A DNA stretch of 32,000 nt from an uncultured Eggerthellaceae bacterium (GTDB taxonomy: Bacteria > Actinomycetota > Coriobacteriia > Coriobacteriales > Eggerthellaceae). The notes beneath the pieces were generated by a model, which was not told the DNA's origin, ran no database searches, and worked only from the letters and a program-made list of their open reading frames with translations. The position numbers and the translations under genes are program-made. Shown in pieces: positions 14,129 through 22,960 of this stretch; the stretch's first letter is position 1; each line of letters begins with the position of its first letter. The stretch covers positions 203,913 to 235,912 of the forward strand of contig CAYWWK010000001.1 in NCBI GenBank assembly GCA_964462135.1. Reading direction: 5' to 3'.

Positions 14129-15400
14129 ATGGAGAACAGGGCACTGGAAAAGGCTCGGCAAGCCTATAGACAGGTGGAAGAGCGCTATATCAAGGCACTT
14201 GAGGCCAAGGGTCTCATCTTCGATGAGCCGCATGCCCATGCAGTGGATGTGCGAAGGCTGAAAGAGCAGCTGAAGAAACGCGGTGTCGTCTTCCGCAACG
14301 CTGGCGCATCGCTTTCTTTTGGGCATCTGTCCCAGGCATGCGAGGAGTGCACGGGGGTGAACGGTTCTGAGACCTTCTCCACTACGTTCAAATGCCACAG
14401 GGACTGCTACTTCTGCTTCAATCACAACCAGCCTGACTATGAGCGGTTCTTTCGGGAGGGGTGTCCCTGGGAGGAGACGCTTGCCCGCAGTGCGTCTGAG
14501 AACGAAAGCCTTGCCTGCATCGGCCTGACGGGTGGCGAGCCGCTGCTGGATGTGGATGAATCCATCCGTTTCCTCACGGCTGCGAAGGAGAGGTTTCCCA
14601 AGGCGCACCTGCGGATGTACACCTCAGGGGATCTACTGAGCGCTGAGACGGCAGCCCGCTTGCGGGATGCGGGGCTGGATGAGATCCGCTTCAGCGTGAA
14701 GGATGACGATTCAGTCGCCATGCAAGGGCGCGTCATCGATGCCATGCGCATCGCCAAGGGGTACATCCCGTCCGTCATGGTTGAGATGCCGGTCATTCCC
14801 GGTGCGGAAGAGCCCATGAAGAAGCTGCTCAAGACGTTCGATGAGGTGGGTGTTGACGGCATCAACCTGTTGGAGTTCTGCTTTCCGTTCTGCCACTGGG
14901 ATGAATTCGAACGCAGGGGCTTCAAGCTCAAGCGGCCGCCCTTCGAGGTGATGTATGACTATGGATACTCAGGTGGCCTGGCGGTGTCCGGTTCTGAGGT
15001 GCTCATCTTGAAGCTCATGGTCTGGGCTCTTGATGAGGGCTTGTCACTGGGGCTTCACTATTGCTCCCTCGAAAACAAGCATCGTTCGGAGATTCGCCAG
15101 AAGAACGAACGTGCACGCGGGCTGCACCCCTGCCTCACCATGGATGAGGGGACCTTCTTCCTGCAGGCGGGAAAGGCGTTCGGGCCTGATGTGCTCAAGG
15201 TCTCAGAGGTGCTTGGTGCGTTGGGCTGCACTGATGTCATCGAAGATGATGAAGAGGATTCCATCACGTTCCCCTTGGCGTATCTGAGCGCCCTTGATGG
15301 CTCATCCCTTGATCTCCAAGTGGCCTATTATGTCTACGAGACCGATGAGGATGGTGCCTACTTCATTGACGTTGCCCTGCGGGATTACTCGAACGAATAG
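14129..15400 (+). CDS. Radical SAM protein of unknown function
   Basis: 423 aa from the ATG at 14129. It has the CX3CX2C motif (CHRDCYFC), the block GLTGGEPLL and the block EIRFSVK. An N-terminal extension of about 90 aa carries an extra CEEC pair. The longer ORF-track start at 14033 would overlap dapL. Confidence 0.8.
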   Translation: MENRALEKARQAYRQVEERYIKALEAKGLIFDEPHAHAVDVRRLKEQLKKRGVVFRNAGASLSFGHLSQACEECTGVNGSETFSTTFKCHRDCYFCFNHNQPDYERFFREGCPWEETLARSASENESLACIGLTGGEPLLDVDESIRFLTAAKERFPKAHLRMYTSGDLLSAETAARLRDAGLDEIRFSVKDDDSVAMQGRVIDAMRIAKGYIPSVMVEMPVIPGAEEPMKKLLKTFDEVGVDGINLLEFCFPFCHWDEFERRGFKLKRPPFEVMYDYGYSGGLAVSGSEVLILKLMVWALDEGLSLGLHYCSLENKHRSEIRQKNERARGLHPCLTMDEGTFFLQAGKAFGPDVLKVSEVLGALGCTDVIEDDEEDSITFPLAYLSALDGSSLDLQVAYYVYETDEDGAYFIDVALRDYSNE

Positions 15401-16158
15401 TCCAAGGCTCCCGTGAAGCGGTAGGCGGCATCCGAAGCCAAGATGATGTAGTTGTCCGCACCGCCGAACTCAGGGTCGGTGGCATCCAGGGCACAGACAT
15501 GGCGAAAGGCGTCATTCAAGGTGTTCATCAGAGAGAAGAGCGCGTAGGAGCCCGTTCTGCTCAAGTCTGCCACGACGTTCATGGCATAGATGCCGCCCGG
15601 GGCGAGATGGGCTTTGATGTGGGAGAGAAACAGGGCATCAACCACGTCGTCGGGCATGCGCGCACCTTGGTACACATCATTGATGATGGCGTCATAGACG
15701 TCTTCCCGCCCAGCCAGGCAGACCGCGGCATCTCCTTCGATGATGCGAAGCCGCGTTGATTCTCCTGTGTCGGCCAAGAAGGCCTCCAGTCGATCAAGAT
15801 AGAAATGCTTCCGGGCTATCTGAATGATGCGAGGGTCGATCTCCACGACATCGAGCATCAGGTCCTGATGGGTGGTGAGCGCGTGCTTCGGCCATGCGAA
15901 ACCTCCGCCGCCCAGAAGGAGTACGCGGCGAATGGGGTGCTCTGGCAATTCTGCCTCGAAGATGGCATCGAAGCGGCGGAAGTACTCGAAGGGAAGCTCG
16001 GCCCACCGGTTTCCTTCCAGGCTGGCTGACTGGAACGTGCCGTCCAGTTCCATCACGCGCACGCGTCTGCCTTGCGTATCCGGTATGGTCATCACGCTCA
16101 CGGTTCCAAAGAGGGTGTCATAGGTTCTCTTCGAGAAGAATCTGTCCAGGAAACCCAT
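15385..16158 (-). CDS. Spermidine-synthase-fold (SpeE-like) SAM/dcSAM-dependent transferase
   Basis: 257 aa from the ATG at 16158, with GGAGG 5 nt upstream. It has the blocks LLLGGGGF, VVEIDPRII, IEGDA and YDAIINDVY. The start overlaps the stop of the upstream methyltransferase (TGATG). The 3' end overlaps the convergent radical-SAM gene by 16 nt. Confidence 0.7.
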   Translation of the reverse strand: MGFLDRFFSKRTYDTLFGTVSVMTIPDTQGRRVRVMELDGTFQSASLEGNRWAELPFEYFRRFDAIFEAELPEHPIRRVLLLGGGGFAWPKHALTTHQDLMLDVVEIDPRIIQIARKHFYLDRLEAFLADTGESTRLRIIEGDAAVCLAGREDVYDAIINDVYQGARMPDDVVDALFLSHIKAHLAPGGIYAMNVVADLSRTGSYALFSLMNTLNDAFRHVCALDATDPEFGGADNYIILASDAAYRFTGALDYSFE

Positions 16159-16898
16159 CACGACCTCCGGAAGATGAGATAGCGATTCATGCTGCCCGTT
16201 CTGCCGTCGGCAGTGAAGTCGTCCAGAAGACATGATCCTGCATCTTCGGCCTTCTGCACCAGGCGGTCTGCCTCCGCGTCGGTGAAGCTGTGGCAGAAGC
16301 GCAAGGTTTGGCTGTCGCCCTGCCAATCCAGAAAGGCATCCCCGTGCGCATCCAAGACGATACCCCTGTCGCGTCGTGCGTGATCGGTGACGCTGCGTGC
16401 CTTGTTGGCAAGGCGCTCATCCTGCATGAAGCGCCACAGGGACACCACGCAAAGCCCTCCTGGCTTCGTGATGCGGACAAGCTGGCCCATCAGGCGCATT
16501 CGAAGCTCTTCGGTGGGAACATGATGCATGAACCCGAAGCATGCCGTCAGCGAACAGAAGGGAAGCTGAAGGCTTTCCAGGGAATCGCCTTGGGCAAGCA
16601 GATGGATGATGTCGGTCTGTCTGCGGAAGACCGTGAAGCTCTCTGGCGCATCCTCATTGAGAAGCGACGCGCAGGCATCGATCCCATAAGCCACGCCCGA
16701 AAGACCTTCTTGACTCAGGAAGCGTTCGAAGCGAAGGTTGCCACAGGCTATGTCCATGACGGTGATGGGTCCTCTTTCCAGATGTCCCCCAAGACGCCGC
16801 CAGCCTTCCCATGCGTCCTGTCGGGTTCGCGAGAACGACTGGGCATGCTTCTCATAGAAGTCATTCGTGAGTCGTGCGATATCGTGAGCATAGTCCAT
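16158..16898 (-). CDS. Class I SAM-dependent methyltransferase, Trm9/ALKBH8-MT-like
   Basis: 246 aa from the ATG at 16898 (MDYAHDIARL...). Its blocks SFSRTRQDAW, MDIACGN, FGFMHHV, KPGG, DAFLDW and RFCHSF parallel yeast Trm9 blocks HFSQTRYKPW, IDVGCGN, IAVVHHW, RQGG, DVFVPW and RYYHLY. The alignment is from memory. The 159-codon upstream extension in the ORF track is rejected. Confidence 0.75.
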   Translation of the reverse strand: MDYAHDIARLTNDFYEKHAQSFSRTRQDAWEGWRRLGGHLERGPITVMDIACGNLRFERFLSQEGLSGVAYGIDACASLLNEDAPESFTVFRRQTDIIHLLAQGDSLESLQLPFCSLTACFGFMHHVPTEELRMRLMGQLVRITKPGGLCVVSLWRFMQDERLANKARSVTDHARRDRGIVLDAHGDAFLDWQGDSQTLRFCHSFTDAEADRLVQKAEDAGSCLLDDFTADGRTGSMNRYLIFRRS

Positions 16899-16906
16899 GG
16901 GGTGCA

Positions 16907-16914
16907 AGTATAAT
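16907..16914. promoter_or_regulatory. Overlapping face-to-face -10 boxes of a symmetric divergent promoter, leaderless on both sides
   Basis: On the plus strand, TATAAT (16909-16914) lies 8 nt before the Elp3 ATG at 16923. On the minus strand, TATACT (16907-16912) lies 8 nt before the methyltransferase ATG at 16898. The whole intergenic gap is 24 bp and neither side has an SD. Confidence 0.5.
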
Positions 16915-16922
16915 CGCTGGCT

Positions 16923-18728
16923 ATGGAAGAGGCATTGAGGCAGATAGCAAAGCGCATTCGACGGGGTGAGGACATCTCTCCCAGACAGCTTGAGGCCATT
17001 CTGCGCAGGGAAAGCCGCAATCTGGCCGAGCCATCGAAGCGCCTGTCGAAGCGCGCCCTCATGGCCTATTACATGCAGCAGAGAGGCGCCCGCAGTGCGA
17101 TATGGAGATCGCTTGGACTGACCAAGGAACAAGACGATGCCATGATCGGCCTTCTGCGCGCCAAGCCCCGACGGACGGCATCGGGGGTGGCCACGGTCAC
17201 GGTGCTCACGAAGCCCTGGCCGTGTCGTGCTGATTGCCTGTACTGCCCCAACGACATCCGCATGCCGAAGAGCTACCTTTGGGACGAACCCGCCTGCCAG
17301 CGGGCTGAGAGGTGCCATTTCGACCCGTATCTGCAGGTTGGTGCGCGCCTCGGTATGCTTCACGGGATGGGGCACAACACCGACAAGGTGGAACTTATCG
17401 TGTTGGGTGGGACGTGGTTCGACTATCCCTATTCCTATCGCCTCTGGTTCGCAAGTCAGCTCTTCCGTGCGCTTGACGATTTCGGGACGGATGCCATGGA
17501 CGGCGAGATGGACCGTCGACGCCGAATCTACGAGAACGCTCCGCAGGCGTCAGAGGGTGCATTGCCTTCACTTCAGATGCGGGTGAACGAAGGTGAACTC
17601 ACCTACGCCGAGGCGCTCGGATGCCTGCCAACGCCCCCGAATGCTGACGATCTGGCTGATGTGGTCAGCGAGGACGCACTGATGTCATGGCAGAGGGCGA
17701 ACGAACGGGCGCAGGCGCGCTCCGTCGGTCTTGTCATAGAGACGCGCCCAGACACCATCACGGATGCGTCCCTTGTCGAATTGCGCACGTTTGGCGTGAC
17801 GAAGGTGCAGATGGGCATTCAGAGCCTGGACGCGGATATCCTTCGACGGAACTGTCGGTGTGGCAGTGTGGATCAAGTCGAAGAGGCGATGGGGCTGCTC
17901 CGGCTTTTCGGCTTCAAATCCCATGTGCATATGATGGCGAATCTGGCAGGATCGACGCCAGAGGCGGATGTGGAGCAGTATCGACGGTTGGTCGGTGATG
18001 AGCGCTACCTGCCTGATGAGATCAAGCTCTATCCGTGTGCCTTGGTGGAAAGCGCTCATCTGACGGATGCCTTCGGACGCGGAGAGTGGGAACCCTATTC
18101 CGAAGAGGCCTTGGTTGGATTGCTTGCTGCATGCGTCGAGGCGACCCCTGCCCATACCCGCATCTCCCGCATGATCCGAGACATCCCCTCCCAGGACATC
18201 CTCACCGGATGCCAGAAGACGAACCTTCGGCAGGTCGTTGAAGCCCACATTGCCTCGGAGGGTCAGCTCCCGTCCATCCAGGAGATGAGGATGCGCGAGG
18301 TGGCCACCCGTGATATGGATGCGGCCGTGCTGCATCTTGAAGAGGTGGCCTATGCCACCACCAACACCGACGAGGTGTTCTTGCAATGGGTGGACGAGGC
18401 GGGCACGTTGGCCGCGTTCCTGAGGCTTTCGCTGCCACGCATCCCCTCACCCGCAACCGGCGATGACGCCATGATCAGGGAGGTCCATGTCTATGGCAGG
18501 ACCTCTCGCATGCACGAGAGCAGGGAAGGGAATCAGCATCTGGGTCTGGGGAGGAAGCTCATAGAGCGAGCGTGCCATCTGGCGCGGGAGGATGGCCGGG
18601 AGGCGGTTTCCGTGATCAGCGCGGTGGGCACACGAGCCTATTATCGGCGCCTCGGATTCGAGGACGCAGGCCTGTACCAGAAATGCATCCTCGATGCTCC
18701 AGATCCGGATTGCATCGAGCTTCCGTAG
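16923..18728 (+). CDS. elp3: Elp3-family radical-SAM / GNAT acetyltransferase (bacterial Elongator Elp3 homologue)
   Basis: 601 aa. It has KPRRTASGVATVTVLTKPWPCRADCLYCPND (CX3CX2C at nt 17223-17246), then PKSYL..EPA..RA..FDPY.QV and KVELIVLGGTW. The C-terminal GNAT block is QHLGLGRKLIERA. Confidence 0.9.
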   Translation: MEEALRQIAKRIRRGEDISPRQLEAILRRESRNLAEPSKRLSKRALMAYYMQQRGARSAIWRSLGLTKEQDDAMIGLLRAKPRRTASGVATVTVLTKPWPCRADCLYCPNDIRMPKSYLWDEPACQRAERCHFDPYLQVGARLGMLHGMGHNTDKVELIVLGGTWFDYPYSYRLWFASQLFRALDDFGTDAMDGEMDRRRRIYENAPQASEGALPSLQMRVNEGELTYAEALGCLPTPPNADDLADVVSEDALMSWQRANERAQARSVGLVIETRPDTITDASLVELRTFGVTKVQMGIQSLDADILRRNCRCGSVDQVEEAMGLLRLFGFKSHVHMMANLAGSTPEADVEQYRRLVGDERYLPDEIKLYPCALVESAHLTDAFGRGEWEPYSEEALVGLLAACVEATPAHTRISRMIRDIPSQDILTGCQKTNLRQVVEAHIASEGQLPSIQEMRMREVATRDMDAAVLHLEEVAYATTNTDEVFLQWVDEAGTLAAFLRLSLPRIPSPATGDDAMIREVHVYGRTSRMHESREGNQHLGLGRKLIERACHLAREDGREAVSVISAVGTRAYYRRLGFEDAGLYQKCILDAPDPDCIELP

Positions 18729-18790: not shown

Positions 18791-19390
18791 CTACAGCACC
18801 TCCTTGATGGCTTGCAAAAGCTCATCGTAGGTGGTGTAGGCGGGAACATCCGGATACTCCTCACGCAGCGCATCGGTGGTGCGGAAGAAGAACCCTGCCT
18901 TGGAGTAGAGGATCATCCCCACATCGTTGTAGGAATCCCCAGAGGCGATGGTTTGAAGGCCGGCTTCATGAAGGGCCCTCACCGTAGTGAGCTTCGTATC
19001 CTTGCAGCGCATCCGGTATCCCGTGATCTGACCGTCAAGCGATATCACGAGCTCATTGCAGAAGATGGTGGGCCATCCAAGCTTCTCCATCAGCGGCTGG
19101 GCGAATTGTGAGAAGGTGTCGGAAATGATGATGACCTGGGTCAAGGCACGCAGTTCATCCAAGAAGTCCTTCGCTCCCTCCATGGGTTCCATGCAGGCGA
19201 TGACCTCTTGAATGTCCTTGATGCCAAGACCATGCTTGCGGAGCAGGTCAAGACGATATTCCATGAGCTTGTCGTAGTCAGGTTCATCTCGGGTAGTGCG
19301 CTTGAGCCCTTCTATCCCCGTCTTCTCTGCAACGGCAATCCAGATCTCTGGAACCAGCACGCCTTCAAGGTCAAGGCAAACGACATTCAT
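18791..19390 (-). CDS. thrH: ThrH-type phosphoserine phosphatase / homoserine phosphotransferase (HAD family)
   Basis: 199 aa from the ATG at 19390, with AGGAG 9 nt upstream. MNVVCLDLEGVLVPEIWIAVAEKTGI...TTRDEPDYDKLM...ISDTF.QFAQPLM...ASGDSYND closely parallels Pseudomonas aeruginosa ThrH, recalled from memory. Confidence 0.85.
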   Translation of the reverse strand: MNVVCLDLEGVLVPEIWIAVAEKTGIEGLKRTTRDEPDYDKLMEYRLDLLRKHGLGIKDIQEVIACMEPMEGAKDFLDELRALTQVIIISDTFSQFAQPLMEKLGWPTIFCNELVISLDGQITGYRMRCKDTKLTTVRALHEAGLQTIASGDSYNDVGMILYSKAGFFFRTTDALREEYPDVPAYTTYDELLQAIKEVL

Positions 19391-19514
19391 CTTGGCGCTC
19401 CTATTCGAGTGTTGGTAGGTTATGCTATTCAGTATACGTTCTTGGAATCCATGAAGCATCGCTGGGCAGGGGAGAGTGGCCGGGTCTGGCGGTGAAAGCG
19501 GCAGGCGGGAGAAG

Positions 19515-20822
19515 ATGAAGGCATCAAGGCTGACAGAAGAAGAGATGGCCTCGCTGTCCCAAGCAGGGTCGAAGAAGCTGGATATCCTCAGCCGATGGCT
19601 TGACAATCAGCTCACGTGCTCGCATTGCGGGAAGTGCACGCGAAGGTGCGACATCCTTGAAGGCCCGGGCTTGGACATGGGCCGCATCATCGCTGCCTAC
19701 GAAAGGATCATGCAGCTTCCCTACGATGAGCAGCCCGGCGGCATCCTTGCGCTGGCCCAAGAGGATTTCCAGCTCTACCACACGCTCAGACGGTGCTGCT
19801 TCTGCGGGCACTGCACGGCTGCGTGCGCCCGCCATATCGGCGCACCTGACCACATGCGTGCATGGCGCGAGCTGTTCATGCGTGCCAACCTCATGCCCCC
19901 TGACGACTCCAAGCTTGTGATGGTTGACAACGAATGGCATATCTTCAGCGCCTATCGCGCCATCTACCAGATAGGCTATCCCGATGCCATCACGCTTGAT
20001 ACTGCTGCCGAGGCGGGACCGGGTTTGGTTGACACGCTGCTGTTTCCCGGTTGCTCGCTGGTTTCCTACGCCCCCCAGGTGGTCACTGCGTTGGGGAAGT
20101 GGCTTTCAGGCGCAGGCATCCACTGGGCGCTTTCCGATGACTGCTGTGGCAGTCCGCTCATGAGTGCGGGCATGTTCGAGCGCGCACGGGATCTGCGGGC
20201 TTCCGTCATACAGAAGATGCAGCGCGCCGGCATCAGGCGCATGGTCACCATCTGTCCGGGATGCGCCGATGAGTTCCGAGAGGACATGCCTGCGGACATA
20301 GAGCTCGTTCCGCTGCCGGAATTGCTTCTGGCAGGTTTGGATGAACGTCTCCGGCAGGGTGTGGACAGTGGTTTCGCCCCACTGGACATTCCTTCCGTCA
20401 CCTTCTTCGACTCATGCCATGATCGCGAAGACACGCGCAATGCCAATGCCCTGCGCAAGCTCTTCGCCCGTCTTCTGCCTCATACCGTGCAGGTTGAGAT
20501 GGATCATGCGCGGCGAGGAACGCTCTGCTGCGGCGCGGGGGGTGCCGTCTCTTCCTACGATGCTGATATTACCAATGAACGTGTTTGGCGCGTGATCAAC
20601 GAGGCGAAGCTCACTGGGGCCTCCACGCTGATCACCATGTGTCCCACCTGCACCTATACCGTTGCCCAAGCCTGTTTGGCTGCTCCCCAGGAAGGTATCG
20701 AGAACCTGCATTACCTTGAGGCGCTTCTTGGCGTGAGGATAGACTGGGCGGAAGTGTTCCAGCAACTCGGCGATATGTGGACGGGTGAATACGGCCCGTG
20801 GCTCAATCAGACCTTCTTCTAG
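19515..20822 (+). CDS. (Fe-S)-binding protein with two 4Fe-4S motifs and two CCG domains (HdrD/GlcF/LutA-like)
   Basis: It has CSHCGKCTRRC and CCFCGHCTAAC, then CCG-type blocks (FPGCSL..., CCGSPL, ICPGC, FDSCH, LCCGAGG, MCPTC). The start was set to the ATG at 19515, downstream of gggaga. Confidence 0.75.
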   Translation: MKASRLTEEEMASLSQAGSKKLDILSRWLDNQLTCSHCGKCTRRCDILEGPGLDMGRIIAAYERIMQLPYDEQPGGILALAQEDFQLYHTLRRCCFCGHCTAACARHIGAPDHMRAWRELFMRANLMPPDDSKLVMVDNEWHIFSAYRAIYQIGYPDAITLDTAAEAGPGLVDTLLFPGCSLVSYAPQVVTALGKWLSGAGIHWALSDDCCGSPLMSAGMFERARDLRASVIQKMQRAGIRRMVTICPGCADEFREDMPADIELVPLPELLLAGLDERLRQGVDSGFAPLDIPSVTFFDSCHDREDTRNANALRKLFARLLPHTVQVEMDHARRGTLCCGAGGAVSSYDADITNERVWRVINEAKLTGASTLITMCPTCTYTVAQACLAAPQEGIENLHYLEALLGVRIDWAEVFQQLGDMWTGEYGPWLNQTFF

Positions 20823-20836
20823 GGAGATGCAAGGCT

Positions 20837-21667
20837 ATGGCAACGGATGGAACAGAAGCGCAATCGACGAATCCAAAGCGCGCTTCCTTTGGGAATAGGG
20901 GACAGGTCACCAGCAGGCCCTCCCGGGACAGCATCGTCTCGTCATACGCTGCTCAAGATGCGGCTCGGGCACGCAATGCCCGCATGCATTCCCAAGAGGC
21001 CGCCCGCTCCTACAATGAGAACTCGCTTCGTCTGAAGGAGCGGGAGAACCAGCGTCGCATCTTGGAGGCGCAGCGGGCTGAGCAGGAGCGCATGAGCGCC
21101 CAGCGGCGGCAGGCCCAACGCGAGATGGACGCAGCCAACGCACGCACCTATTCCAGCATCCATGAGCAAGAGGCTCACGAGATCACCCGCGCTCACAAGA
21201 TAGCGCGTCCCCTGAGTTCGCAAGAGAGTCACAATCGAACCGTGATGTCGCGTGATGCCTATGAGCGAGAACGGGAGATGCGCGATGCCCTTTCCGCTCG
21301 ACGAAGTGCACGAACCACCAATCGTGAGGTCATCGATGGACGAGGGAGCATCGATTCACGCGCCTTCAATGAACAGAATCGCATGGTTGGGTATTCCGTC
21401 AGCGAAGAGGACAAGCCCGCGCCTGCCGTGGACGCCTCCAATCCCAAGGCGAAGTGGAGATCACATGCGGGGCAGGGTTTTGGCAATGGGGCCCGACCGT
21501 GGGTGAACCGTCACATTGATCTGGGTTCGCTTTCCGATTCCATCAGCGGCAGCGCCAACTACAGCAAGGGTTCTTCGCCCTTCTCGTCTCTGCCACCCTT
21601 CGTGCGCGTCGTCATACCACTGCTCGTGCTGCTGCTCATCGTCCTCATCTTCATCGTGTTCTTCTGA
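20837..21667 (+). CDS. Hypothetical tail-anchored protein, R/Q/E-rich low-complexity region plus a C-terminal TM helix
   Basis: 276 aa from the ATG at 20837, with GGGAGA upstream. It has a charged, coiled-coil-like segment (ERENQRRILEAQRAEQERMSAQRRQAQREMD) and ends in VVIPLLVLLLIVLIFIVFF. It starts 14 nt after the Fe-S protein gene. Confidence 0.6.
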   Translation: MATDGTEAQSTNPKRASFGNRGQVTSRPSRDSIVSSYAAQDAARARNARMHSQEAARSYNENSLRLKERENQRRILEAQRAEQERMSAQRRQAQREMDAANARTYSSIHEQEAHEITRAHKIARPLSSQESHNRTVMSRDAYEREREMRDALSARRSARTTNREVIDGRGSIDSRAFNEQNRMVGYSVSEEDKPAPAVDASNPKAKWRSHAGQGFGNGARPWVNRHIDLGSLSDSISGSANYSKGSSPFSSLPPFVRVVIPLLVLLLIVLIFIVFF

Positions 21668-21735
21668 CAGCACCTGTGGGGTTTATGCGTTGCCGGCATC
21701 TCTTGCCCCACCCAGATGAACCCTACAGCGCGTCC

Positions 21736-21770
21736 GTAGCGAAGGCTTCAGCCTTCGTCCCCCGAAGGGA
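21736..21770 (+). repeat. REP-like element with three arms (A-A'-A) between convergent genes
   Basis: GTAGCG, then cgaaggc/ttca/gccttcg, then tcccc-cgaaggg. The middle arm can pair with either flank. Positions 21736-21757 are identical to 18732-18753. Confidence 0.65.
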
Positions 21771-21810
21771 TCCCATCCGGTACAGGACCCTCCCCGAGGC
21801 ATCTCAAGCC

Positions 21811-22746
21811 TCATGCCATCAACAGACGCACGCCAAAGTAACCCAGAACGGCGATGCCCAGCACGATGCGGTAGACGCCGAAGGCGGTGAAGTCGTTCTT
21901 CTTGATGTAGCCCATCAGGAACTTGATGGAGATGACGGACACGATGAAGGCCGTCATGACGCCGGTGATGAGGACGGCAACCTCCGTACCGGTCATTGCC
22001 AATCCAAGCTCGGCGATGTACTTGATGGTCTTCAAAAGCCCCCAGCCGAACATGATGGGAATCGCCAGGAAGAACGTGAACTCGGCAGCAGCGGTTCGGG
22101 AGCATCCGCAAAGCATTCCGCCAATGATGGTGGAGCCAGACCGCGAGGTTCCCGGCACGATGGCAAGCACTTGGAAAAGCCCGATCTTCAACGCCGTCTT
22201 CCAATCGATGTCATCCACGGTCTTTATGGGGAACAGCGCCATCTCGGCATCGTCGCCATCATCTCCGGCGCCGATGCGGGCATGCTTGCCGCGGGGCGCT
22301 CTTGCGGCAAGGAAGGCCGCTTCCCGCTTGCGGTTGTGGCGTTCAAGCACGATGAAGACGATGCCATAGACGATGAGGGCGGCGGCCACCGTCCAAGCGT
22401 TGTGGAAGTGCTCGGTGAAGAAGTCGTCGAAGGCGACGCCAATGATAGCGGCAGGGATGCAGCCGATGACCACCATGCCCCACAGGCGCCATGTCTCGCG
22501 CTTCTCAGGCGCGGATTTCTTCGGGGAGAGGGGGTTGAGCTTATGGAAGTACAGGATGATGACGGCCATGATGGCGCCGATCTGTATCACGACCAAGAAC
22601 AGCTCGCGGAATGCGTCGGATACTTGGAGCTGCACGAATTCATCGACGAGGATCATGTGTCCGGTCGAGGATATCGGCAGCCATTCGGTGATACCCTCCA
22701 CTATGCCGATGAGAAGCGCCTTGAGAATCTCCATGAATGCTTCCAT
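21811..22746 (-). CDS. uppP: Undecaprenyl-diphosphate phosphatase
   Basis: 311 aa. It has the N-terminal block IVEGITEWLPISSTGH and a later block PGTSRSGSTI. A charged insertion lies in the central loop. Confidence 0.93.
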   Translation of the reverse strand: MEAFMEILKALLIGIVEGITEWLPISSTGHMILVDEFVQLQVSDAFRELFLVVIQIGAIMAVIILYFHKLNPLSPKKSAPEKRETWRLWGMVVIGCIPAAIIGVAFDDFFTEHFHNAWTVAAALIVYGIVFIVLERHNRKREAAFLAARAPRGKHARIGAGDDGDDAEMALFPIKTVDDIDWKTALKIGLFQVLAIVPGTSRSGSTIIGGMLCGCSRTAAAEFTFFLAIPIMFGWGLLKTIKYIAELGLAMTGTEVAVLITGVMTAFIVSVISIKFLMGYIKKNDFTAFGVYRIVLGIAVLGYFGVRLLMA

Positions 22747-22960
22747 GGTCTTGCCTGCTCCTTTCTTGATGCAACTCCCTCGGGAATGATGACAAATATG
22801 CCCTAAGAGGGCAACCTTGGAATCAGCGTCGGTCTATCCTTTACAGGAAATTGACGATGCATCCACGCATGAGGCGCAATCGGATGGATCGGACGCATCT
22901 GTGCGGGTGATGTTCCTATCCTTGTCCCTTGACGAAGGATGCGCATCGCAAGGAGAGATC

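Follow-up and report, generated by a model that had tools for sequence, protein, structure and literature searches.

The locus described here raises the question of whether a bacterium could modify the wobble uridine (U34) of its tRNAs by the two-step route known from archaea and eukaryotes. In a 32,000-nucleotide stretch of DNA from an uncultured Eggerthellaceae bacterium, analysed as a whole and hereafter called the window, a gene for an Elp3 protein (elp3, 16923–18728, + strand) and a gene for a class I S-adenosylmethionine (SAM)-dependent methyltransferase resembling Trm9 (16158–16898, − strand) point away from each other, with their ATG codons separated by exactly 24 nt (16899–16922). The former encodes a radical-SAM/GNAT protein of 601 residues, the predicted tRNA U34 carboxymethyl-forming enzyme, and the latter a protein of 246 residues, a candidate carboxyl methyltransferase for 5-carboxymethyluridine (cm5U34). 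Together, the two genes are probably a bacterial version of the archaeal/eukaryotic pathway that leads to 5-methoxycarbonylmethyluridine (mcm5U34). The methyltransferase gene is followed by a gene for a non-canonical transferase of 257 residues with the spermidine-synthase (SpeE) fold (15385–16158, − strand), which is probably an optional or accessory gene and not a core part of the system, with a putative link to the tRNA pathway. An NCBI contig has called genes for proteins identical to all three; thus an independent gene caller agrees with the three open reading frames (ORFs).

The product of elp3 scores 406 bits against the NCBIfam model TIGR01211 (curated cut-off, 350 bits), with its residues 40–585 covering positions 19–517 of the 522 in the model. 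It matches all solved Elp3 structures in the Protein Data Bank (PDB), with E values from 1e-83 to 1e-63, in the order Dehalococcoides mccartyi, Methanocaldococcus infernus, and then yeast, human, and mouse. Its closest solved relative is the D. mccartyi enzyme (DmcElp3, 5l7j; E 1e-83, 285 bits, compared to 262–266 bits for MinElp3 of M. infernus), with which it has in common the radical-SAM and lysine acetyltransferase (KAT) core. The radical-SAM Fe–S triad, Cys101-x3-Cys105-x2-Cys108, aligns with the cluster loop of DmcElp3, the GNAT domain is matched at residues 481–583 (Acetyltransf_1/10), and the acetyl-CoA/KAT motifs HVYG522, QHLGLG538, and GTRAYY569 are likewise aligned with DmcElp3. The first-pass annotation of this DNA had described the gene as encoding Elp3, with a CX3CX2C motif and a C-terminal GNAT domain, and that assignment is confirmed by the family score and by the matches to the solved enzymes.

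Two elements set the protein apart from DmcElp3. One of them is a basic N-terminal extension of 78 residues, residue 81 of the window protein being aligned with residue 3 of DmcElp3. The first 100 residues include 22 Lys/Arg and have an isoelectric point (pI) of 11.4, and an N-terminal segment of comparable length and charge is present in related loci. In archaeal Elp3 it is the basic N-terminal extension that drives tRNA binding, whereas DmcElp3, which is devoid of it, binds tRNA weakly, and its weak activity has been ascribed to this absence (PMC6367351). The other element is an insertion of ~65 residues in the radical-SAM domain (residues 187–251, encoded by 17481–17675), which is flanked by the GGT(W/F) and ETRPD strands and is not seen in the solved structures. 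In the listed relatives, GGT and ETRPD are 69 to 150 residues apart, and the insertion recurs at variable length.

The methyltransferase belongs to a large family. A word-indexed search returned 682 homologues, the names of which say no more than class I SAM methyltransferase (of Slackia, Collinsella, Enorma, and Coriobacteriales), and an exhaustive profile search gave 1,621 clusters at 50% identity (E ≤ 1e-30); among the best 150 members of the profile search, none links the family to Trm9 of archaea or eukaryotes. When a profile of 30 family sequences was searched against all 177,635 PDB sequences, the top match was Trm9 of Yarrowia (5cm2_Z, E 5e-5), with the next methyltransferase at 1.3e-3, a modest margin. 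A second profile was made from 24 retrieved yeast Trm9 sequences, all from Saccharomycotina, the query for the retrieval being 99% identical to Trm9 of Saccharomyces cerevisiae (ScTrm9). Aligned to each other with hhalign, the two profiles match with a probability of 97.3% and an E value of 2e-11 over the N-terminal 136 columns, and, at a permissive threshold, over their full length (211–225 columns), with probabilities of 97.4–98.5% and E values down to 2e-14. The AlphaFold2 (AF2) model of the window enzyme, with a predicted local distance difference test (pLDDT) score of 94, has a Rossmann-type topology.

Residues that are critical in Trm9 can be traced in this family almost completely. Mutagenesis of yeast Trm9 identified Arg29, Asp72, His116, Trp145, Trp168, Arg241, Tyr243, and Asn271 as essential for activity (PMC4678810). 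According to the mapping derived from the full-length hhalign result and a merged MAFFT alignment, with conservation counted in 260 family members, seven of these eight residues are kept, each in 258–260 of the 260 sequences. Arg29 of ScTrm9 corresponds to Arg26 of the window enzyme, Asp72, which interacts with the SAM ribose, to Asp74, His116 to His126, and Trp145 to Trp155, whereas Trp168, Arg241, and Asn271, which belong to the C-terminal β-hairpin, correspond to Trp192, Arg200, and Asn238, respectively. Tyr18 and His115, the modelled contacts to the carboxylate/O4 of cm5U, map to Tyr15 and His125 and are conserved to the same extent. Motif I (Asp49-x-Ala-Cys-Gly-Asn54) is invariant in the family, as is Asp74, and the blocks FS.TR, D.xCGN, HH, GG, D.F..W, and R..H, which had been listed as marks of Trm9 in the first-pass annotation, are all present and invariant or nearly so. 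The sole exception is Tyr243 of the RYYH strand, the position of which is occupied by Cys202. The window enzyme also differs from yeast Trm9 in ~13 extra residues after β3 and in the absence of the long yeast insertion, instead of which a helix (residues 161–178) precedes the β-hairpin.

The association of the two genes extends far beyond the window. One genome per species was scanned with the two most conserved peptides of the methyltransferase family, yielding at least 578 confirmed loci, and the counts of gene order given here refer to the best 80 of them. Nearly all of these 80 are titled Coriobacteriia, three carrying other labels, and Eggerthellaceae, Collinsella, Senegalimassilia, Adlercreutzia, Raoultibacter, Slackia, Enterorhabdus, and Atopobiaceae are represented. 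In 75 of the 80 loci, elp3 lies no more than ~2.2 kb upstream of the methyltransferase gene, and in four of the other five the upstream sequence is shorter than 2 kb. The two genes are divergent in 72 of the 75 paired loci (27 of them with a gap of less than 300 bp) and co-directional, with elp3 preceding the methyltransferase gene, in three. The adjacency in 75 of 80 related loci, together with the score of Elp3 above its curated cut-off, indicates that the pairing observed in the window is not due to chance.

The distance between the partners varies. In Collinsella, two genes, for a DUF4097 protein and an uncharacterised one, lie between them, and in Senegalimassilia anaerobia (locus L017, 4653–5846) this place is taken by a gene for a NifS/IscS-type cysteine desulfurase, which fits a role in Fe–S supply or in 2-thiolation. 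In C. aerofaciens (L044, 6983–7822), the Trm9-like gene is followed by a gene for a TrmB-like methyltransferase (tRNA m7G46) that scores just under the NCBIfam TrmB cut-offs. Both of these are further neighbours with roles in tRNA modification or sulfur relay. Throughout the class Coriobacteriia the pairing of elp3 with the methyltransferase gene is kept, and it survives several rearrangements. The conservation of gene order, which the first-pass annotation proposed to check for all three genes, thus holds for this pair, and it does not extend to the SpeE-fold gene, which is absent within 6 kb in 36 of the 80 loci. Two of the loci with other labels, both from bins labelled as Firmicutes, deserve mention. 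One contig titled Faecalibacterium prausnitzii (L025, 65.5% G+C) contains the pair and looks like a mis-binned contig of Collinsella type, and another, titled Acutalibacteraceae (L069), also contains the pair and is genuinely low in G+C (39.5%); the latter may show the pair outside the typical Coriobacteriia.

A number of observations weigh against the identification of the methyltransferase with Trm9. Standard libraries provide only a weak generic match, to Methyltransf_23 (28.9 bits), no NCBIfam family is matched at E ≤ 0.01, the only hit being a 15-bit match to an MduS domain, and a single-sequence phmmer search of the PDB misses Trm9. The essential Tyr243 is replaced by Cys in 257 of the 260 family members, while the flanking Arg200 and His203 are kept. 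Foldseek is unable to separate the class I families, and in its search Trm9 ranks tenth among many class I folds, although with the top target-normalised template modelling (TM) score, 0.71. A hidden Markov model (HMM) of Trm9, limited to Saccharomycotina, assigns 17 bits to the window protein and 33.5 bits to the best family member, whereas 3ege and 1ve3, PDB methyltransferases without Trm9 annotation, reach ~36 bits. An uncharacterised protein of the cyanobacterium Anabaena variabilis, 3ege also carries the Trm9-type N-terminal motif Y-x6-YSQTR, as well as HH, so that some of the motifs also occur outside Trm9, and active sites akin to that of the Trm9 carboxyl methyltransferase may have a wider distribution among bacteria. 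Finally, the family is acidic, with a median pI of 5.4.

These observations could mean that the protein is a generic class I enzyme acting on some other substrate, be it a different site in RNA, a small compound, or a protein, and that its likeness to Trm9 reflects ancestry or convergence. We regard this explanation as unlikely, since Trm9 comes first in the forward profile search, the invariant residues comprise not only seven of the eight essential ones, including Trp168, Arg241, and Asn271 of the β-hairpin, but also the two that contact cm5U, and the association with Elp3 is nearly obligate across rearrangements. CmoM, CmoA, and UbiE/COQ5 were considered as other identities of the enzyme and rejected, none of them being matched in NCBIfam at E ≤ 0.01, and PDB chains of UbiG type were found only at E values of ~0.012–0.018, compared to 5e-5 for Trm9; no signal of UbiE, CmoA, or CmoM thus exceeds that of Trm9. 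The likeness to CmoM, which converts cmo5U to mcmo5U, is one of function only, in that both enzymes would place a carboxyl methyl ester on the side chain of U34. The description of the 246-residue protein as Trm9-like, proposed in the first-pass annotation, has good support in the family profile, the essential residues, and the synteny, but this support is not complete, because one defining residue, Tyr243, is not kept, and with the low score against the Trm9 HMM the case is not airtight.

A much broader doubt would be that Elp3 and its partner act on a substrate other than tRNA, such as a metabolite, a peptide, or a DNA base. No product of a bacterial Elp3 has been demonstrated in vivo (PMC7663514), and the ~65-residue insertion has no counterpart in the solved structures. 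Nevertheless, Elp3 exceeds its curated cut-off across the full length of the model, its conserved basic extension is of the tRNA-binding type (PMC6367351), and the chromosomal context is a housekeeping one without signs of a biosynthetic cluster or of mobile elements. [quoted passage not shown] A substrate other than tRNA is therefore very improbable.

In the two-step pathway that we favour, Elp3 would use its radical-SAM and acetyl-CoA-binding domains to carboxymethylate U34 at C5, yielding cm5U, as its homology suggests. Such cm5U-forming chemistry is established for archaeal Elp3. The Trm9-like enzyme would then transfer the methyl group of SAM to the carboxylate of cm5U to give mcm5U, a step predicted from the active-site residues and the synteny, and additional thiolation of the MnmA type may lead to mcm5s2U. 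The same two steps were put forward in the first-pass annotation, and the family score, the residues, and the synteny, all of them read from sequence, appear to support them well. The pathway would be a class-wide trait of Coriobacteriia, plausibly filling the role in the formation of C5-substituted wobble uridines (xm5U34) that MnmE/MnmG have elsewhere. MnmE/MnmG are reported to be absent only in Actinobacteria (PMC6063277), the phylum to which Coriobacteriia belong, and their reported loss makes it plausible that the xm5U34 function is provided there by the pair. The analogy between the two systems is functional only, as both provide a C5 substituent on the wobble uridine by means of unrelated enzymes.

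Comparison with the eukaryotic pathway, consisting of Elongator and Trm9/Trm112 (or the methyltransferase domain of ALKBH8), suggests that the same two chemistries would be carried out here in the same order. The architecture and motifs of Elp3 match, and the methyltransferase keeps the counterparts of Arg29, Asp72, His115, His116, Trp145, Trp168, Arg241, Asn271, and Tyr18 of Trm9. In contrast to the eukaryotic system, subunits Elp1, Elp2, and Elp4–6 are absent, as expected in prokaryotes, and the two window genes are arranged divergently across one 24-nt spacer. No gene resembling Trm112 was noticed in the 32-kb window, in which small ORFs were not scanned, and a Pfam scan of the long members of the methyltransferase family likewise revealed nothing similar to Trm112. 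The latter scan found one fusion, P0332 (437 residues), in which a Trm9-like part is followed by a C-terminal DNA_binding_1 domain of MGMT/Ogt type (E 1e-10). This arrangement loosely recalls ALKBH8, where a domain of Trm9 type is combined with one of repair type, although it could also be a fusion created by gene calling.

Archaeal systems are closer in organization. Elp3 of M. infernus, like the protein described here, is a stand-alone enzyme with a basic N-terminal extension (PMC6367351), and the genes of Elp3 and Trm9 are clustered in Sulfolobus solfataricus (PMC6144793), just as the genes of Elp3 and the methyltransferase are physically clustered in the window. The host differs from those of the archaeal Elp3 and Trm9 proteins, including Trm9–Trm112 of Haloferax volcanii, in being a bacterium, a member of Coriobacteriia within Actinomycetota. 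Compared to DmcElp3, the basic N terminus and the ~65-residue insertion are additions, and the Elp3 described here is found class-wide in gut Coriobacteriia, paired with a Trm9-like methyltransferase.

The two-step pathway itself is already known in archaea and eukaryotes, and the finding is thus not categorically new; what it adds is that an entire class of human-gut bacteria has a full-length Elp3 of archaeal/eukaryotic type, together with the methyltransferase predicted to act after it. Among bacteria, Elp3 has been described as confined to Dehalococcoides, with direct evidence for xcm5U products lacking, in part because Dehalococcoides is hard to grow (PMC7663514), and mcm5U has been listed as not known in bacteria (PMC4615748). 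A paper from 2026 refers to 'numerous bacteria' with Elp3 and mentions no Trm9 partner (PMC13315578). Searches of the open-access literature and bioRxiv yielded no account of Trm9 in a bacterium, of the pairing in bacteria, of Elp3 in Coriobacteriia or Actinobacteria, or of mcm5U in Coriobacteriia. Since cultured isolates exist for some genera of the class (Collinsella, Senegalimassilia, Adlercreutzia, and Slackia), the question of what a bacterial Elp3 produces becomes testable. The pair may also answer the question of how a branch of Actinomycetota, a phylum reported to be without MnmE/MnmG, modifies C5 of the wobble uridine, and it may offer the Elongator field a single-subunit Trm9, perhaps independent of Trm112. 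In addition, a candidate function is suggested for a large family (the 1,621 clusters mentioned above) that is annotated only as 'class I SAM-dependent methyltransferase'.

The short spacer between the two genes suggests how they could be expressed. It contains a TATAAT sequence (16909–16914) 8 nt before the ATG of elp3, and on the opposite strand TATACT is found 8 nt before the ATG of the methyltransferase gene, whereas no Shine–Dalgarno sequence precedes either gene. The presence of these −10-like boxes so close to both start codons and the absence of Shine–Dalgarno sequences suggest that both mRNAs are probably leaderless and that they would be transcribed from overlapping divergent −10 boxes. 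In 18 of the 19 related loci inspected, a TANNNT box, placed by eye, precedes the start of elp3 by ~7–13 nt, the start in the remaining one (L029) being not placeable. A scan for two-hexamer sigma-70 promoters and for terminators found nothing relevant in or around the locus.

In turn, the downstream end of the methyltransferase gene is tightly joined to the gene of the SpeE-fold protein. At this junction (16156–16168, − strand), the stop codon TGA (16160–16158) overlaps the ATG of the next gene (16158–16156) by 1 nt in the sequence TGATG, and a GGAGG Shine–Dalgarno sequence (16168–16164) is located five nt upstream. The translational coupling of the two genes that had been noted earlier is thereby confirmed, and in the lineage of the window the SpeE-fold protein would be co-translated with the methyltransferase, as an accessory SAM-dependent transferase acting on an amine. 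The spermidine-synthase fold, also claimed before, is borne out by both the AF2 model (pLDDT 91.5), which contains the complete SpeE fold with the N-terminal β domain and the Rossmann domain, and by the Foldseek search, in which the top 50 matches are all spermidine, thermospermine, or related aminopropyltransferases (one of them only 'probable'), with query-normalised TM scores of 0.58–0.73. The full fold, including the N-terminal β domain, is shared with members of the SpeE family at TM scores of 0.67–0.73. The only NCBIfam cut-off that the protein passes is that of NF037959, a broad 'fused MFS/spermidine synthase' subfamily (101.6 bits; cut-off, 40).

The identity of this protein as a canonical spermidine synthase was rejected. 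Its scores against the aminopropyltransferase equivalogs are all below the cut-offs (66.5 vs. 304, 41.6 vs. 472, 39.5 vs. 260, and 30 vs. 249.55), and two acidic residues of the SpeE family are missing. The acidic residue of GGGDG that selects decarboxylated SAM (dcSAM) corresponds, in the alignment with SpeE of E. coli and Synechococcus, to position 86, where 26 of 30 family members have Gly, the other 4 have Ala, and none has Asp or Glu. The second Asp of DxxDP is also missing, with Gln, Ser, Thr, or Ala counted in 24 of 30 sequences and no Asp visible in the alignment. On the other hand, the catalytic base Asp161 and the ribose-binding Glu106 are invariant, as in SpeE. The closest solved relative, 3gjy, an uncharacterised 'probable spermidine synthase' from C. 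glutamicum, has the same deviations (GGGA and D-V-F-A-G motifs), and the profile of the family also matches, among spermidine synthases, the SAM-dependent C-terminal domain of METTL13 (5wcj, E 6e-13).

Loss of the Asp in GGGDG is what separates the SAM-using putrescine N-methyltransferase from spermidine synthase. The protein can be likened to the SAM-using offshoots of the SpeE family, putrescine N-methyltransferase and the C-terminal domain of METTL13, and to 3gjy. The deviations in GGGDG and DxxDP, the retention of Asp161 and Glu106, the same pattern in 3gjy, and the match to METTL13 suggest that the likeliest chemistry would be transfer of a methyl or other alkyl group to an amine, with SAM and not dcSAM as the donor. 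Of the chemistries proposed for this enzyme in the first-pass annotation, aminopropyl transfer of the canonical, dcSAM-dependent type is unlikely due to the absence of the two Asp residues, whereas SAM-dependent transfer of a methyl or 3-amino-3-carboxypropyl (acp) group may take place.

The placement of the SpeE-fold gene is far more variable than that of the pair. It directly follows the methyltransferase gene only in the closest relatives of the window (L001, L002, and L008). In ~41 Collinsella-type loci it directly follows elp3 instead, the stop codon being succeeded by its ATG, as in L044 (1231–2112), where its product starts with a hydrophobic segment rich in Ala, Val, and Gly. In the 36 loci mentioned above it is not found within 6 kb, and these include two close relatives, L023 and L038, that keep the other neighbours seen in the window. 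The contexts of seven further homologues comprise six that are unrelated or uninformative and one in a metagenome-assembled genome of Atopobiaceae (L082, 4791–6867), where the gene lies 10 nt downstream of one for an RlmD-type 23S rRNA m5U methyltransferase (TIGR00479, 303 bits). The SpeE-fold gene is thus coupled to genes of SAM-dependent RNA modification in three lineages, namely those of the Trm9-like enzyme, Elp3, and RlmD. A crude hydropathy test indicates an N terminus resembling a membrane anchor in 12 of 30 family members; the window protein has none. Like its family (pI ~4.9), it is acidic, with a net charge of −14 and a pI of ~4.9.

These data bear on two explanations of the coupling. 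We lean to the one in which the SpeE-fold protein is independent of tRNA, being a SAM-dependent N-methyltransferase or a similar enzyme for small amines, polyamines, or protein N termini, comparable to the C-terminal part of METTL13, while its gene merely shares an operon slot with the methyltransferase gene in the lineage of the window. The match to METTL13, the motifs shared with the uncharacterised 3gjy, the failure to reach any aminopropyltransferase equivalog cut-off, the acidic character, the membrane anchors of many homologues, and the mixed gene contexts all agree with this explanation, whereas the tight coupling to genes of SAM-dependent RNA modification in three lineages would be an odd coincidence. 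This coupling would be accounted for if the SpeE-fold enzyme were, where coupled in an operon, a true third component, which would follow Elp3 and the methyltransferase in modifying the same wobble nucleoside and create a new hypermodified xm5U. It might add a methyl or acp group from SAM, couple an amine or polyamine to the mcm5 ester by aminolysis, or serve, similarly to Trm112, as a partner common to the Trm9-like, Elp3, and RlmD enzymes. Coupling of an amine or polyamine to the ester would yield a wobble nucleoside new to the catalogues of modifications.

Such a third step appears improbable, even though the TGATG overlap with GGAGG occurs in the window and in L001, L002, and L008, the start of the gene adjoins the stop of elp3 in the Collinsella-type loci, the third partner, RlmD, is again a SAM-dependent RNA-modification enzyme, and the loss of the GGGDG Asp, with Asp161 invariant, would permit binding of SAM. 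The gene is missing from the 36 loci, L023 and L038 among them, its homologues occur in unrelated contexts, the protein has a net charge of −14, a membrane anchor such as 12 of 30 homologues seem to have would be unusual for a tRNA enzyme, and mcm5U has no obvious amine nucleophile. In addition, the arrangements found in the window and in Collinsella could be interconverted by a single inversion of the elp3–methyltransferase pair beside a static neighbour. The absence from 36 loci and the variable contexts are among the reasons for treating the SpeE-fold gene as accessory, and the further decoration of the nucleoside by a third transferase, as imagined in the first-pass annotation, is not supported.

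The surroundings of these genes are those of a housekeeping chromosome. The window has ~58% G+C, and its other genes include those of RelA/SpoT, aspartate kinase, Asd, TlyA, DapL, ThrH, PcrA, and a DHH pyrophosphatase. A tRNA scan revealed no tRNA gene in the 32 kb, there is no Rfam match, and signs of mobile elements (a repeat search included) or of a biosynthetic cluster were not found around the locus. On one side, elp3 is flanked by the gene of ThrH, a bifunctional phosphoserine phosphatase/homoserine phosphotransferase (18791–19390, − strand; 293 bits), followed by that of a CCG/4Fe-4S HdrD-like protein (19476–20822, + strand). Both genes accompany elp3 in several loci of Eggerthellaceae (L001, L002, L008, and L038), which is probably plain vertical synteny.

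On the other side, a gene for a radical-SAM protein of ~423 residues (14129–15400, + strand) is convergent with the SpeE-fold gene, the 3′ end of which it overlaps by 16 nt. This protein matches no specific family, its top scores, ~38 bits, being to HxsC or MoaA. Its homologues adjoin the methyltransferase gene in L023 and L038, lie beyond the SpeE-fold gene in L001 and L008, and adjoin elp3 in L006, L017, and L032. Downstream of the HdrD-like gene, the region 20798–22806 (+ strand) contains two successive ORFs of 289 and 376 residues that have no Pfam match. The first of them has a high content of Arg, Ser, Gln, and Glu, and its C-terminal tail is strongly hydrophobic (…VVIPLLVLLLIVLIFIVFF).

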